DNA of 22,205 nucleotides. Origin: a virus. Its lineage: Duplodnaviria > Heunggongvirae > Uroviricota > Caudoviricetes. The stretch covers positions 1 to 22,205 of IMG/VR virus record IMGVR_UViG_2671181094_000007; one strand, given 5' to 3'. A program made the translations under genes and the position numbers. Within the stretch, counting starts at the first letter, position 1. Every line of letters starts with the position of its first letter. This document shows positions 5,412-13,716 of the stretch, piece after piece. The notes under the pieces were generated by a model. The model worked only from the letters and a program-made list of their open reading frames with translations. It was not told the origin of the DNA and ran no database searches.

Positions 5412-5512
5412 TGTTTTTTAACCTCAACTCAGATTAAAATTCGTTTTGTTCAGTGAATGATCTTGCCGGATACACACTGTTCATAGCCTGCGCCATACGC
5501 AGGCTATTTCTT

Positions 5513-5788
5513 TCAGATTTCACCTTTTAATTTCATTGCAATTAGAGTTGCCAGAAATTCGGCTTTTTTTTCTGCGGGCAGATTCTTTCCGATATGCACC
5601 AGGCACATTTTTTTGACACCTTCATCAAGTGTTTTTACGTTGCCTGATGGACCATCGATATCAACCACAGTGAATGGGGTTTCTTTATTTTCTGTTTTAA
5701 TTACGTAGCCAATGCGCTTTCCTTCCAGATTCACCTCGTGAACAATGTCATCGGTAGTTACAACAGTGGCTTCATAATTGGTAATCAT
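5513..5788 (-). CDS. racC: RacC protein, 91 aa
   Basis: Internal start MITNYEATVVTTDDIVHEVNLEGKRIGYVIK... (91 aa) recalled as Rac RacC; located between ydaE and recE. Confidence 0.8.
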   Translation of the reverse strand: MITNYEATVVTTDDIVHEVNLEGKRIGYVIKTENKETPFTVVDIDGPSGNVKTLDEGVKKMCLVHIGKNLPAEKKAEFLATLIAMKLKGEI

Positions 5789-10448: not shown

Positions 10449-11174
10449 ATGGAGACCGTTTTTGACGCACTGAAAGCAATGGGAAAAGCCTCTTCCCAGG
10501 AAGTGGCAGCACGTCTGGGAATGACCCGGGATGAGGCGATTAACGAGCTGTGGAAACTGAAGCGTCGTGGGGAAGCTGATAACAAGGGCCCGATGTGGTG
10601 GTTGACTCAAACCGACGAAAACGCATCTGTAGCACAGGCTTCTAAAGTGACAGCGCAAATGCTGATCGAGGCGATTGAACAGCATGGCCCTAAAGCGGCT
10701 GATGAACTTGCACTGATATTCAGAATTACTTCCCGCAGGGTGAACTCATCGCTGGCTATGGCCATCAGCAAAGGTCGTCTGATTCGCGTAAATCAGAACG
10801 GTAAATTTCGTTACTGCCTGCCGGACGGTAATTTACCAGCAGAGCCGAAAGTTGTATCGGTAGTGAAAACACCTGGTAAAGGCTTTCCTCAGCCAGCCGG
10901 TGTTGCGTTACCAGTACAGGAAGCGGCAACACAGGAAGAAATTAAAACAGATACTGTGGGGGACATTGTGCAGTCACTACCATCGTTCACTGAAACGCGA
11001 GCCAATGACCTGATTATACCATCGCTGCAAATGGCAAACCGCGAACTGCGCCGGGCGAAAAGTTATGTCCAGAAGTGGGAGCGAGTCTGCGCCGCGCTGC
11101 GTGAGCTGAACAAGCACCAGGATATTGTCCGTCAGATTGTCGATTCCTCCAGTCGTATTGTGTCGGAAAAGTGA
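10449..11174 (+). CDS. Hypothetical protein (YdaW-position), 241 aa
   Basis: ORF from METVFDALKAMGKASSQEVAARLGMTRDEAINELWKLKRRGEA... with GGGAGG SD 9 nt upstream; N-terminus resembles a winged-helix/MarR-like fold (inference). The track ORF starts 17 codons earlier inside ydaV. Confidence 0.6.
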   Translation: METVFDALKAMGKASSQEVAARLGMTRDEAINELWKLKRRGEADNKGPMWWLTQTDENASVAQASKVTAQMLIEAIEQHGPKAADELALIFRITSRRVNSSLAMAISKGRLIRVNQNGKFRYCLPDGNLPAEPKVVSVVKTPGKGFPQPAGVALPVQEAATQEEIKTDTVGDIVQSLPSFTETRANDLIIPSLQMANRELRRAKSYVQKWERVCAALRELNKHQDIVRQIVDSSSRIVSEK

Positions 11175-11190: not shown

Positions 11191-11613
11191 ATGGCAAAAG
11201 TATTTACACAGGAAGAGCGAGAAAAAATTAAAGGGCAGATTGTTGATCTTGTACGCCAGAGCGGGCGAGAGACGTTACGACAACTGGAAGCTAAAACGGG
11301 GGCGACAAGATATCTGATGAGCGTTCTGGCCAGAGAGCTGGTTGCCAGTGGCGATGTATACAATTCTGGCTACGGGTTATTCCCGTCTGAACAGGCTCGT
11401 AAAGACTGGCAAAATGCCCGCAAAAAATTATCGAGGGCAAAGCTGAAGAAACCGGTTGTGGTTGATCCGGACCTTATCTGGTCGTTACCTGACGGAGAAA
11501 TACGTCGCTACGACAGTCGCCTAAACATAATCTGTCGCGAGTGCCGGAAGAGTGAAGCTATGCAGCGTGTACTGGCTTTCTATCAGGGTAATTTTCAGGA
11601 GGCGGTACTGTGA
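11191..11613 (+). CDS. Hypothetical protein, 140 aa
   Basis: ATG at 11191 preceded by GGGGAGGG; MAKVFTQEEREKIKGQIVDLVRQSGRETLRQLEAKTGATRYLMSVLAREL...; no family recognised. Confidence 0.55.
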   Translation: MAKVFTQEEREKIKGQIVDLVRQSGRETLRQLEAKTGATRYLMSVLARELVASGDVYNSGYGLFPSEQARKDWQNARKKLSRAKLKKPVVVDPDLIWSLPDGEIRRYDSRLNIICRECRKSEAMQRVLAFYQGNFQEAVL

Positions 11614-11670
11614 GTGAAATTAGCTATCAGGCTTCAATTACCGCTGGCATTCGCATCAAAGGAGAGGAGC

Positions 11671-12027
11671 ATGGAAATAAAACCAGAGGATGAGTTAAGC
11701 AATATCGTTTTATTTCCGGTAAAAGAGGATGACCCTCGTAATCAGGTTAATTTTCTTTATGAGCCATCGGAAAGACCATATTGTTATCACGCCTCTGTCC
11801 GGGTTGACGAAAAAGAGCGTCAGGTCCGCTGTAAAATCTGCGGTGCAGTTGTGGAGCCATTTGACTGGATGCTCTCTGTGGCGAAAAGAGAAACCAGACT
11901 GGCAGATGATGTAAGGCTCTTGCGTCAGGAGGAGCGGGAAAGGCGAAAAAATATAGAAAAGCTAATTCAGATTGAGCGTAACGCGAAAGCGCGGATACGC
12001 AGGGCGACAAAATCCAGAACTGAATAA
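11671..12027 (+). CDS. Hypothetical protein, 118 aa, Cys/His cluster plus basic coiled-coil tail
   Basis: ATG at 11671 preceded by AAGGAGAGG; MEIKPEDELSNIVLFPV...YCYHASVRVDEKERQVRCKICGAVVEPFDW... then an Arg/Glu-rich C-terminus. A start at the GTG at 11614 cannot be excluded. Confidence 0.5.
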   Translation: MEIKPEDELSNIVLFPVKEDDPRNQVNFLYEPSERPYCYHASVRVDEKERQVRCKICGAVVEPFDWMLSVAKRETRLADDVRLLRQEERERRKNIEKLIQIERNAKARIRRATKSRTE

Positions 12028-12120
12028 TTAAATTTAGCTCTGTTAAAAATTTAATCCTTAACCGGAGGGATTTCTGCACCCTCAGAACATCAGGAGGCCG
12101 CCCGAAAGGGCGGTAGTTAA

Positions 12121-12303
12121 ATGCGAAAGTTTAAAATAATTATTGAAACGGGAATAGCCGGTGGAGATTTCGAGGATGAATTCGAAGTGGATGATGATGC
12201 GACGCCTGATGAAATACATGACGAAGCAAAAGATATTTTCTTTAACTACTGCAATTACTCATATCACGAAATAAAAGACGAAGAGGAAGAACAAAATGGC
12301 TGA
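12121..12303 (+). CDS. Hyper-acidic small protein, 60 aa
   Basis: MRKFKIIIETGIAGGDFEDEFEVDDDATPDEIHDEAKDIFFNYCNYSYHEIKDEEEEQNG: about 20 Asp/Glu against 5 Lys/Arg. A GC hairpin (12097-12114) sits between an AGGAGG and the ATG. Confidence 0.45.
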   Translation: MRKFKIIIETGIAGGDFEDEFEVDDDATPDEIHDEAKDIFFNYCNYSYHEIKDEEEEQNG

Positions 12304-12472
12304 TTTTGGTTCAACTAAATACAACGTCAGTTTTGAAGAATGGCATGAACTGTTAATGGACTATGCAGAGTTACGTGGTGGCAGTGCTGCTGATGCTGAA
12401 GCATGGCGTGATGATTATGAAGCAGGAAAAACTCCGGTCGAAGCATATTGTGATGAGTGGGGCGATGAATGA
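12296..12472 (+). CDS. Hyper-acidic small protein, 58 aa (absent from the ORF track)
   Basis: Hand translation from the ATG at 12296: MADFGSTKYNVSFEEWHELLMDYAELRGGSAADAEAWRDDYEAGKTPVEAYCDEWGDE then stop. Start overlaps the upstream stop (ATGGCTGA) and its stop overlaps the next ATG (ATGA), suggesting a coupled chain. Confidence 0.45.
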   Translation: MADFGSTKYNVSFEEWHELLMDYAELRGGSAADAEAWRDDYEAGKTPVEAYCDEWGDE

Positions 12473-12785
12473 GCGAGGTTAATTATCAGGAAGGGCATGA
12501 AACGGCGGGGCAAGCAAAAACAGTGGCATGGCGATATCGCTACGTGAAAAAAAAGGCGTTACGGACTTTCAGGGGAAGTAGTGGTCTGGTGACTGGAAAT
12601 ATGTACCGAAAAAAGAGGATTGTAACGACAGGCCGAACTATGAAATTCAGGCCTTATTCACTGCCCCGCCAGTCCCGGTTACATCAGAAGAACTGGTTAA
12701 AGCTGTGCACTTTTATGAACAACTAAAACGCGAAAATCCACCAGCATCCGGAAACCTGATTACAGATTCCCAGATAAGGCAATGA
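12469..12785 (+). pseudogene. Interrupted ORF: frame-1 start (12469) and protein-like frame-0 continuation (to 12785) meet at an A_AAA_AAG heptamer; either a programmed -1 frameshift gene or a 1-nt indel pseudogene
   Basis: Frame-1 ORF MSEVNYQEGHETAGQAKTVAWRYRYVKKK... turns basic and low-complexity after about codon 48. The -1 frame from 12609 reads EDCNDRPNYEIQALFTAPPVPVTSEELVKAVHFYEQLKRENPPASGNLITDSQIRQ and contains no ATG. The frames meet at A AAA AAG (12609-12615). Confidence 0.3.
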
Positions 12786-12955
12786 GCTACCTGGCGCAGA
12801 ACGGGCTGATAAGTATGGGGAATGTTTTACGATGAATATTTAGACTAAAGAGTTTGTAACGCTATGTAAGTGATTTTTTCTGGTTTAGATATTTATATGT
12901 CCGGCCAAATTGAGGTGTGTTTAAATGTAATTGCACATTGATTGTAGGAGGAATA

Positions 12956-13135
12956 ATGAAAAACGCATTGCAGTTTTTGTTTGTTGCGTTCTGGTTGTTC
13001 GTATCATGTATGCCCATCATCTTCACAGCAAGGTATATGGAAAAAGTTGATGTTTTGATATTAATATTTGGATATATAAATGCCCTTTTTTTAGGGGTGT
13101 TCATGGCGGTCATGTGCATTGAATACTGGCGGTAA
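12956..13135 (+). CDS. Small hydrophobic membrane protein, 59 aa, two predicted TM helices
   Basis: GGAGG 6 nt before the ATG at 12956; MKNALQFLFVAFWLFVSCMPIIFTARYMEKVDVLILIFGYINALFLGVFMAVMCIEYWR; AT-rich codon usage. Confidence 0.45.
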   Translation: MKNALQFLFVAFWLFVSCMPIIFTARYMEKVDVLILIFGYINALFLGVFMAVMCIEYWR

Positions 13136-13393
13136 ATACAGCGAACGCCATTGGTTTAGTTGGATATTTACTGTGCCGGACAAAAACGGTTTGCGGGGAA
13201 ATCTTAGTTAAGTAGAATGACTGCGGGTGCTTGAGGCTATCTGTCTCAGGCATGAACACCAAAAGGCAGATAGAGAAAAGCCCCAGTTAACATTACGCGT
13301 CCTGCAAGACGCTTAACATTAATCTGAGGCCATATCTATGCGACACATAGAGATTAGCCTCTTACGGACCGAAAGGTCAAGGAGAAGCAGGCT

Positions 13394-13549
13394 ATGAAGC
13401 AGCAAAAGGCGATGTTAATCGCCCTGATCGTCATCTGTTTAACCGTCATAGTGACGGCACTGGTAACGAGGAAAGACCTCTGCGAGGTACGAATCCGAAC
13501 CGGCCAGACGGAGGTCGCTGTCTTCACAGCTTACGAACCTGAGGAGTAA
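13394..13549 (+). CDS. hokD: Hok-family type I toxin (HokD/RelF-like), 51 aa
   Basis: MKQQKAMLIALIVICLTVIVTALVTRKDLCEVRIRTGQTEVAVFTAYEPEE: single TM helix and conserved Hok C-terminus. A 19-codon upstream ORF (MRHIEISLLRTERSRRSRL) ends overlapping the hok ATG, mok-like. Confidence 0.85.
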   Translation: MKQQKAMLIALIVICLTVIVTALVTRKDLCEVRIRTGQTEVAVFTAYEPEE

Positions 13550-13619
13550 GAGACCTGGCGGGGGAGAAATCCCTCGCCACCTCTGATGTGTCAGGCATCC
13601 TCAACGCACCCGCACTTAA

Positions 13620-13644
13620 CCCGCTTCGGCGGGTTTTGTTTTTT
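13620..13644 (+). terminator. Rho-independent terminator downstream of hok
   Basis: CCCGC-TTCG-GCGGG stem-loop followed by TTTTGTTTTTT. Confidence 0.6.
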
Positions 13645-13716
13645 CCTGGCATTCTGGTTTACAATTCGCACGTCAGCCTGAACACCTGACACCTGCTGCG
13701 CCAGCAGAGAAAACAG

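Follow-up and report, generated by a model that had tools for sequence, protein, structure and literature searches.

The window, i.e., the whole 22,205-nt stretch of phage DNA that was analysed, belongs to a Rac-like prophage at ttcA. A block with six ORFs, all on the + strand, lies between its replication genes and hok (positions 11191–13135). A preliminary description had placed six ORFs of particular sizes between the ydaW-like gene and hok, and we found each of them there at the size first reported. The block and its flanks hold the following features:

10449–11174, + strand: ydaW-like DUF1627 gene, the left flank and last gene of the replication module (Pfam DUF1627, E = 7.6e-86; DUF1627 is also annotated in an identical chromosome)
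11191–11613, + strand: ORF1, 140 aa, DUF977/LygF, Ren-like winged-helix protein (Pfam and PHROG profiles)
11671–12027, + strand: ORF2, 118 aa, predicted zinc ribbon plus long basic helix, nin/ea-region phage family phrog_1621 (PHROG, alignment, AF2)
12028–12120, + strand: ORF2–ORF3 junction, 93 nt (AGGAGG at 12092–12097, hairpin at 12097–12114)
12121–12303, + strand: ORF3, 60 aa, DUF7167, acidic beta-beta-alpha miniprotein (Pfam and PHROG)
12296–12472, + strand: ORF4, 58 aa, acidic helical miniprotein, C-terminal part of phrog_519 (PHROG)
12469–12835, + strand: ORF5, pseudogene of a phrog_660 family gene (frame lesions relative to an intact copy)
12836–13177, no strand: AT-rich indel segment, 342 bp, 34–40% GC, from the ORF5 tail to hok/sok (composition, indel comparison)
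12956–13135, + strand: ORF6, 59 codons, two predicted TM segments, coding status doubtful (AGGAGG at 12946–12951)
13178–13650, + strand: hok/sok type I toxin-antitoxin module, the right flank, with hok at 13394–13549 (Rfam sok, 51-aa Hok ORF)

Annotated E. coli chromosomes contain the block with 100% identity. In an identical chromosome, the replication genes are followed by the block and then by hok, DUF968, RusA and the Q antiterminator, and the prophage has kept its Q, lysis and terminase genes. Individual parts of it are present in 29–71% of complete E. coli genomes: ORF1 is in 3841 of 5426, the AT-rich segment is in 1570 of 5426 (all at least 95% identical save one short partial match), and ORF2, ORF3 and ORF4 are each in approximately one-third. 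Since every part of it recurs in anywhere from hundreds to thousands of E. coli genomes, the block is ordinary and not new: it is a common mosaic of small early genes in a Rac-like E. coli prophage, and it has already been catalogued. One near-identical strain carries a nonsense codon in hok.

The ORFs had been described as belonging to no nameable family. Profile searches with each protein overturn this for five of them: ORF1 belongs to Pfam DUF977 and PHROG 142, ORF3 to Pfam DUF7167, and ORF2, ORF4 and ORF5 to PHROGs 1621, 519 and 660, leaving only ORF6 with no family. DUF977 and DUF7167 are family names with no function attached, and ORF1 and ORF3 score well above their curated cut-offs. 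An NCBIfam scan of the six ORFs gave no meaningful match, and a PDB sequence search (using ORF1, ORF2, an ORF2 profile, an ORF3 profile and ORF4) gave only chance or compositional matches. Judging by titles and abstracts, the literature search brought up no function-related papers on LygF, DUF977, DUF7167 or the PHROG numbers, and it found no mention of DUF7167.

Variant sites separate the ORFs into those that are under selection and those that are not. Under neutrality, the expected nonsynonymous fraction is 0.77–0.83 (0.83 for ORF3). The observed fractions are 0.34 for ORF1 (47 synonymous and 24 nonsynonymous sites), 0.28 for ORF2 (36 and 14), 0.50 for ORF3 (18 and 18) and 0.58 for ORF4, with P values for the departure from neutrality ranging from 1e-14 to 0.009. 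Purifying selection on ORF1–ORF4 is thus strong to moderate, and none is evident on ORF6.

ORF1 is probably a homologue of lambda Ren, as judged by profile similarity. It matches DUF977 (PF06163) over profile positions 1–134 of 134 with 104.7 bits (gathering cut-off 22.1), and it matches phrog_142, “Ren-like exclusion protein”, with an E-value of 4.7e-48. Lambda Ren is a member of the same PHROG (E = 1.6e-41), and the two proteins share a MarR-like winged helix, which PHROG matches place at the N-terminus of ORF1, and a C-terminal motif. This motif is conserved as ECRxSxAMxRVLAxY in ORF1, where 12 of the 20 residues of the Ren motif are identical. Position agrees as well, i.e., lambda ren comes directly after P, and ORF1 starts 16 nt past the DUF1627 gene, likewise just past the replication genes in the early-right operon. 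However, ORF1 is longer than lambda Ren (140 vs 96 aa), pairwise similarity is confined to the 20-residue motif with none detectable outside it, and DUF977 is reached by ORF1 but not by lambda Ren. Lambda Ren is linked to Rex exclusion, its phenotype being escape from Rex. ORF1 may act in the same way, at the point where phage replication meets Rex-type exclusion. The PHROG category for the Ren family is “moron, auxiliary metabolic gene and host takeover”.

ORF2 had been described as a 118-aa protein with Cys/His residues and a long helix, and this description holds. The protein matches phrog_1621 (E = 5.9e-56) and has homologues across Enterobacterales at 45–73% identity. The four putative zinc ligands (C38, H40, C54 and C57) do not vary among 29 sequences of the family, and the AF2 model (pLDDT 76.8) has hairpins at residues 43–61, with strands at 43–46, 51–54 and 60–61, followed by a 55-residue helix at 63–117. 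This model and the Cys-x-His ... Cys-x2-Cys pattern make a zinc ribbon the likely fold. Its score against the TFIIB-type zinc ribbon PF08271 was 18.6 bits, under the cut-off of 29, and a fold search of PDB and BFVD gave no match at E ≤ 0.001, the top match being to the N-terminal domain of TFIIB with an E-value of 0.19. Composition and fold suggest that ORF2 could form a coiled-coil dimer that binds nucleic acid or another protein.

The ORF2 family is regularly found in nin/ea regions. Prophages of Serratia, Yersinia and Klebsiella carry its members at the distal end of true nin regions, beside the resolvase genes and immediately ahead of Q, and in other genera they are flanked by RusA, NinG, NinH or YbcO on one side and Q on the other. 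Overall, the relatives found in true nin regions lie beside NinB, NinE, NinG, NinH, RusA and YbcO. Downstream of ORF2 in the window, the junction carries a predicted hairpin (GCCGCCC-GAAA-GGGCGGT, 12097–12114), which is followed by 6 nt and then the ORF3 ATG. Phage ArgO145 has an additional 70-aa gene at this junction, and there the unit of SD, hairpin and ATG remains joined to ORF3.

ORF3 and ORF4 correspond to the two acidic proteins of the preliminary description. Their sequences predict very acidic miniproteins, each with a pI of 4.05 and with net charges of about −15 (ORF3) and −12 (ORF4), that are conserved in both temperate and virulent phages. ORF3 matches DUF7167 (PF23768) with 55.1 bits (gathering cut-off 24.4) and phrog_1997 with an E-value of 9e-31. 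Its relatives form 99 representative clusters and extend to Enterococcus phages, and its AF2 model (pLDDT 84.7) had no PDB match at E ≤ 0.001 in a fold search. ORF4 matches phrog_519 (E = 4.5e-23), its relatives occur in 198 phage records, including virulent Ackermannviridae at 55–60% identity, and the family alignment has 14 invariant positions. Composition and fold are consistent with ORF3 and ORF4 binding or inhibiting host proteins during lytic growth. We also considered a link between ORF3 and exonucleases, because the genes that its relatives overlap in Klebsiella Guernseyvirinae and Enterococcus Herelleviridae carry the annotation “exonuclease”. These neighbours come from the unrelated families DUF2800/PD-(D/E)XK and DUF3850/ASCH, so we dropped the association.

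The frame-interrupted ORF that begins at 12469 is ORF5, and it is a dead phrog_660 gene. Its lesions are an A8 run at 12547–12554, a TAG at 12579–12581 and a second frame change near 12745–12785, and PGAP labels it “frameshifted; internal stop”. Phage 689R5 carries an intact 119-aa counterpart with A6 and CAG in place of A8 and TAG, and this copy matches phrog_660 with an E-value of 2.9e-45; the window copy, which lacks an intact reading frame, reaches only E = 0.006. Alleles of 104, 119 and 171 aa occur elsewhere.

The AT-rich segment that holds ORF6 is an indel, i.e., in three loci (L047, L076 and L079) 74 nt take the place of its 342 bp. The preliminary description's sequence features for ORF6 stand, but its status as a gene is not supported: it is a 59-codon hydrophobic ORF with a strong SD, and it is probably not a constrained gene. 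All six of its variant sites are nonsynonymous, an outcome with a probability of 0.0005–0.04 if ORF6 were constrained like its neighbours. Its length is unremarkable, since ORFs that start with ATG and span 59 or more codons arose in 13% of shuffles of the segment (P = 0.13). Searches of Pfam, PHROG, NCBIfam and PADLOC, toxin families included, gave no match, its relatives are confined to E. coli/Shigella, and PGAP leaves it uncalled in the identical chromosome.

The alternative is that ORF6 encodes a genuine two-pass membrane protein (a toxin, a holin-like protein or a superinfection-exclusion protein) and that the site upstream of hok/sok is a hot spot for genes of tiny membrane proteins. 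We consider this rather unlikely on account of the evidence above. Several features do point towards it: ORF6 has AGGAGG 4 nt ahead of its ATG, two hydrophobic stretches and T at 53% of its second codon positions, all 55 of the loci compared keep its frame open at 59 codons, and some pipelines annotate a protein of 59 or 72 aa there. In addition, other prophages have hydrophobic ORFs of 27 aa and of 29–51 aa in the same slot, the 27-aa one being ATGA-coupled to its upstream gene, and these positional analogues match no family either. Hok/Gef and other type I toxins are likewise small hydrophobic ORFs, and ORF6 adjoins hok/sok. However, ORF6 has two predicted TM segments where Hok/Gef has one, its sequence resembles no family, and Rfam detected no antisense RNA for ORF6. 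Frameshifted ORF6 variants exist at a T7 run and would argue against coding, but we give them little weight because their only source is read-assembly (Logan) data, where homopolymer errors could produce them. On the opposite strand, an 85-aa ORF (12862–13119) that is called “hornerin” in one phage record was set aside, having no family support.

Taken by content, the block likely comprises four real, translationally coupled genes on the same strand, one dead gene and one doubtful ORF. The earlier statement that the ORFs are tightly packed fits the overlaps between them (e.g., 8 nt between ORF3 and ORF4) but not the 93-nt junction or the 342-bp indel around ORF6. A signal scan of the + strand found no promoter-like and no terminator-type sites within the block. 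Because internal promoter and terminator signals are lacking and stop and start codons overlap, we infer that the genes would be transcribed on induction by read-through from a pR-like promoter.

The block had also been called the equivalent of a nin region, and three observations bear this out: it lies before hok, DUF968, RusA and Q, its first gene is of the Ren family, and ORF2 has relatives in true nin regions. There is thus a good chance that the interval is the promoter-proximal part of a ren-nin-type accessory segment in the early rightward operon of a Rac/Qin-mosaic lambdoid prophage. Lambda nin (ninB–ninI, from ren to Q) also lies between the replication genes and Q, and its genes are also small, overlapping, mosaic and dispensable. 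The likeness does not extend to the genes themselves. Lambda has NinB–NinI where the block is followed by hok/sok, DUF968 and RusA, none of the block ORFs has a Nin Pfam match, and a tblastn search with ORF2–ORF6 found no match below E = 0.01 anywhere in the lambda genome, which rules out these ORFs as homologues of lambda nin or ea genes. A close parallel to part of the block is in the ea/exo-xis region of Stx phages (e.g., ArgO145, with ead/Ea22-like flanks), where ORF2, ORF3 and ORF4 occur in the same order at 95–100% amino-acid identity. Unlike the block, this cassette is in a leftward (pL-side) accessory region, its ORF2 and ORF3 are separated by the additional 70-aa gene, and its next gene is Ead/Ea22-like instead of the phrog_660 gene.

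The preliminary description regarded the block as variable cargo. Mosaicism across loci supports this (e.g., different replication modules, including O-like genes, precede ORF1 across prophages), but the argument that had been made from K-12 does not. K-12 Rac does lack the region, but through a single large deletion from inside ydaW to rzpR. Since this deletion also takes Q and the lysis genes, the gap gives no support to variable cargo. Of the six ORFs, ORF5 (a pseudogene) and ORF6 (doubtful) should be left out of any count of working cargo.

That the cargo includes anti-defence, exclusion or host-takeover genes, as was suggested, is a possibility. In its specific form, at least one of ORF2–ORF4 would be a dedicated inhibitor of a defence system or host enzyme, e.g., an acidic DNA-mimic-like protein, that aids escape from immunity. 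The mosaic nature of the region, the PHROG class of the Ren family and the small size, strong acidity and selection of ORF3 and ORF4 all speak for this reading, as does their being common to virulent phages, for which lysogeny functions are useless. On the other hand, acidity by itself is weak evidence, there is no similarity to solved anti-defence structures or other PDB chains, and the fold searches with the ORF2 and ORF3 models gave no significant match. We therefore judge a dedicated inhibitor unlikely. All six ORFs also lacked matches in PADLOC-DB at E ≤ 0.1, but PADLOC covers defence systems and not anti-defence proteins, so this says little about anti-defence. Two further readings seem to us unlikely: that ORF3 and ORF4 inhibit host defence or DNA-handling proteins, and that the slot before hok/sok is a hot spot where lambdoid prophages swap tiny membrane proteins with toxin or exclusion activity.

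The idea that the whole block is a decaying, non-functional remnant of a cryptic prophage draws on the ORF5 frameshift and stop, the neutral-like evolution of ORF6, the ORF2–ORF3 spacer (a junction that holds an extra gene in another phage) and the hok nonsense codon of the near-identical strain, but it is highly improbable, being largely refuted for ORF1–ORF4 by their synonymous and nonsynonymous counts, with these four genes intact and conserved across genera and sequenced phage records, and with Q, lysis and terminase genes kept.

As it stands, the block has little significance: it is among the most frequent pieces of prophage DNA in E. coli, and each of its intact genes has been catalogued, with no function assigned. 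Its value is as a shortlist: ORF2, ORF3 and ORF4 are short, conserved and selected, and functions found for them would apply to families in thousands of strains. Two false leads have also been removed, ORF5 being dead and ORF6 probably unconstrained.

At the right flank, the Rfam sok match (106.7 bits) is at 13225–13396, hok is intact in the window, and similarity to hokW loci begins at 13179. A terminator-like hairpin is present in this hok/sok flank at 13618–13635.

The block at 11191-13135, between the DUF1627 (ydaW-like) gene and hok, is best read as an ordinary ren-nin-type accessory segment, and we consider this reading likely. Such a segment would be expressed together with the early-right operon. 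Of its parts, ORF1 would be a Ren homologue, ORF2 a zinc-ribbon protein of a nin family, and ORF3 and ORF4 acidic miniproteins, with ORF5 dead and ORF6 a doubtful gene. The preliminary description placed six ORFs here, and all six are present with the positions and sizes it gave:

11191-11613, + strand: ORF1, 140 aa, DUF977 / phrog_142
11671-12027, + strand: ORF2, 118 aa, phrog_1621 (E 5.9e-56)
12121-12303, + strand: ORF3, 60 aa, Pfam DUF7167 (55.1 vs 24.4 bits) and phrog_1997
12296-12472, + strand: ORF4, 58 aa, C-terminal part of phrog_519
12469-12835, + strand: ORF5, pseudogene, phrog_660, with a frameshift and an internal stop
12956-13135, + strand: ORF6, 59 codons, two hydrophobic spans, doubtful gene

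The 2.1-kb interval has 100% identical copies in annotated E. coli chromosomes; of 5426 complete E. coli genomes, 698 carry at least 80% of it and 4096 carry parts. In strain CH4796, the surrounding 26 kb form a Rac-like prophage inserted beside ttcA, with the gene order intR, xisR, ralR, recT, recE, racC, kilR, sieB, a repressor/cro-like pair, ydaT, a ydaU-like gene, ydaV, the DUF1627 gene, the block, hok, DUF968, RusA, the Q antiterminator, lysis genes, trkG and terminase. The block lies between the replication module and Q and therefore occupies the position of ren and the nin genes in lambda, so the term "nin-region equivalent" is apt. The tight packing originally reported holds for ORF1 to ORF5 (a 16-nt gap after the DUF1627 gene, an 8-nt ORF3/ORF4 overlap and an ATGA overlap of ORF4 and ORF5) but not for the 93-nt ORF2-ORF3 gap or the AT-rich stretch around ORF6. 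Within the block, scanning the + strand for consensus signals gave neither promoter-like nor terminator-like sites, and the first + strand terminator-like hairpin (13618-13635) is 3' of hok. On sequence grounds, we infer that the block is co-transcribed with the replication genes.

ORF1 had been called unrecognised, but it matches Pfam DUF977 end to end (104.7 bits, cut-off 22.1) and the "Ren-like exclusion protein" family phrog_142 (E 4.7e-48), and phage records name it LygF. Lambda Ren matches the same PHROG (E 1.6e-41), and its N-terminus is also matched by MarR-type regulator PHROGs. The two proteins share a C-terminal motif (ICRECRKSEAMQRVLAFY / VFKECRQSAAMKRVLAVY, 12/20 identical, pairwise E 4e-7). 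ORF1 follows a replication module of either ydaUVW or O type, just as ren follows P in lambda. It occurs in 3841/5426 genomes, with 47 synonymous and 24 nonsynonymous variant sites against a neutral expectation of 77% nonsynonymous (P = 1e-14). With ren, lambda escapes the exclusion imposed by its own RexAB. In a recent preprint, ren is considered "likely involved in DNA replication", and Rex proteins are reported to contact O and Ren in two-hybrid assays. The neighbouring DUF1627 protein (10449-11174) weakly matches phrog_142 at residues 2-52 (E 6.7e-5) and also matches other winged-helix families, so it may have a DNA-binding domain in common with ORF1.

ORF2 has relatives (45-73% identity) in Escherichia, Klebsiella, Kluyvera, Salmonella, Yokenella, Erwinia, Serratia, Pluralibacter and Yersinia. 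Among 29 aligned members, C38, H40, C54 and C57 are invariant, and the C-terminal LRxEExQRRxNIEKLIQIERNAKARIRR is almost so. In its AF2 model (pLDDT 76.8), short hairpins span residues 43-61 and one helix runs from 63 to 117. Against the Pfam TFIIB ribbon, ORF2 scores 18.6 bits, short of the threshold of 29, and fold and PDB searches returned only generic ribbons. Variant sites are mostly synonymous (36 vs 14 nonsynonymous, P = 7e-14). These features suggest a basic coiled-coil protein, stabilised by zinc, whose ligand would be nucleic acid or a partner protein.

ORF3 and ORF4 are real proteins, each with a pI of 4.05 (20 and 16 acidic residues, respectively) and with fewer nonsynonymous variants than expected under neutrality (P = 5e-6 and P = 0.009). 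They occur together in 1909/5426 genomes. An exhaustive search with ORF3 gave 99 representative clusters, nearly all stand-alone proteins of 50-60 aa, which align over a conserved beta-beta-alpha pattern with an acidic tail; the AF2 model (pLDDT 84.7) had no significant fold match. Klebsiella phages carry ORF3 relatives, as do Enterococcus Herelleviridae (42% identity); those of ORF4 are in 198 phage records, mostly virulent Ackermannviridae (55-60% identity, 14 positions invariant across the aligned set). Since virulent phages carry both, their distribution points to a role in lytic growth. An anti-defence role for ORF2-4 is possible but unlikely, and is based only on size, charge and context.

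The only good Shine-Dalgarno of ORF3 (AGGAGG, 12092-12097) is 23 nt from its ATG (whole unit 12092-12123). A stable GNRA hairpin (GCCGCCC-GAAA-GGGCGGT, 12097-12114) is predicted between them and would shorten the distance to ~6 nt, a layout resembling the split-SD arrangement of some T4 genes. This unit is intact in phage ArgO145 despite a different upstream gene. The 93-nt spacer (12028-12120) is a module junction: in ArgO145 (L007 3886-4181), the same flanks enclose an additional 70-aa gene.

The segment that contains ORF6 (12836-13177, 342 bp, 34-40% GC) behaves as an indel: in three loci, 74 nt replace it, with an identical upstream tail and hok/sok start on either side. The segment is in 1570/5426 genomes and is at least 95% identical in all except one short partial match. 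That ORF6 encodes a functional membrane protein is somewhat unlikely. Its AGGAGG (4 nt 5' of the ATG), two hydrophobic spans, T at 53% of second codon positions, frame open in 55/55 loci and the small hydrophobic ORFs in its slot in other prophages favour a gene. However, it has no family match, no relative beyond E. coli/Shigella among 5.8 billion proteins and no PGAP call, and an ORF of its length arises in 13% of shuffles of the segment. Its variant sites are all nonsynonymous (6/6), which fits neutrality (P = 0.28) and is unlikely under its neighbours' constraint (P = 0.0005-0.04).

Where this segment is absent or different, other tiny hydrophobic ORFs lie just 5' of hok/sok (L088 5195-5278 and 5374-5529; L047 ~5433-5516, both comparison loci). 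One is a 27-aa single-TM ORF (MTRPEALTTVGIAMAVALVVYSICRWG), ATGA-coupled to the upstream gene, and another is 29-51 aa; neither has a family match. An 85-codon antisense ORF (12862-13119, - strand) overlaps ORF6. It has no family support, and its label in phage vB_EcoS-640R1, "hornerin", looks like a mis-annotation.

ORF2 is a regular nin/ea-region gene, because its homologue is at the far end of a true nin region in Serratia, Yersinia and Klebsiella prophages, and in Stx phages it is in the leftward accessory region beside ead/Ea22-like genes. In the former, it is directly 3' of RusA, NinG, NinH or YbcO, abutting or overlapping that gene's end in 5/6 loci; a Pfam-recognised Q antiterminator follows after a single small gene in the Yersinia and Klebsiella loci (in Klebsiella, this gene is YlcG). 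The proposed ren-nin-type segment is closest to three known items: lambda Ren, the nin region of lambda (matching in place and style, with no genes in common beyond ren) and the ea region of Stx phages, which has the same ORF2-4 cassette. All intact genes are already catalogued as a Pfam DUF or in PHROGs, and the exact sequence is in hundreds of annotated genomes.

Comparison with phage 689R5, whose copy is intact (119 aa; phrog_660, E 2.9e-45), confirmed the suspected frame interruption in ORF5. The window copy has A8 at 12547-12554 (A6 in 689R5) and TAG at 12579 (CAG in 689R5), and near 12745-12755 it switches to the family's C-terminal tail in yet another frame. PGAP labels it "frameshifted; internal stop". 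Other prophages have alleles with open frames of 104, 119 and 171 aa. The A-run, a slippage-prone homopolymer, is 6, 7 or 8 bases across prophages; given the downstream TAG, the window copy is dead whatever the length of the run. Wholesale decay of the block is very improbable.

The block was also described as variable, and this stood. In 80 viral contigs that contain ORF2, the arrangement seen most often is ORF1, ORF2, ORF3, ORF4, ORF5, AT-rich segment, hok/sok, but ORF3/4, ORF5 and the AT-rich segment are each missing from some, and the upstream replication module varies. In E. coli W, the ORF2 slot (L003 1158-1514) holds a 118-aa DNA methyltransferase fragment (phrog_954 positions 52-165 of 229, annotated as class I SAM-dependent methyltransferase), and EBJ003 carries an HNH gene together with a different gene of 328 aa. 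The region is therefore mosaic. K-12 Rac does lack it, but as the result of a deletion and not as a sign of variable cargo: a truncated ydaW is joined to rzpR, and Q and the holin and endolysin genes are also lost.

Downstream, hok is intact in the window (51 aa, 13394-13549). The otherwise identical CH4796 has a CGA-to-TGA nonsense change in its copy (hok at L001 14295-14450), hence its 32-aa PGAP call. TTGCGG and TAGAAT, 16 nt apart (13191-13218, found by eye and below the promoter scan threshold), lie at the start of the region common to other hok loci and are a plausible hok mRNA promoter. Just 3' of hok, 13558-13639 is a full-length, sub-threshold match to the Rfam isrK sRNA (27.2 bits vs gathering 50) that ends in a terminator-like hairpin and is probably part of the hok mRNA, at its 3' end.
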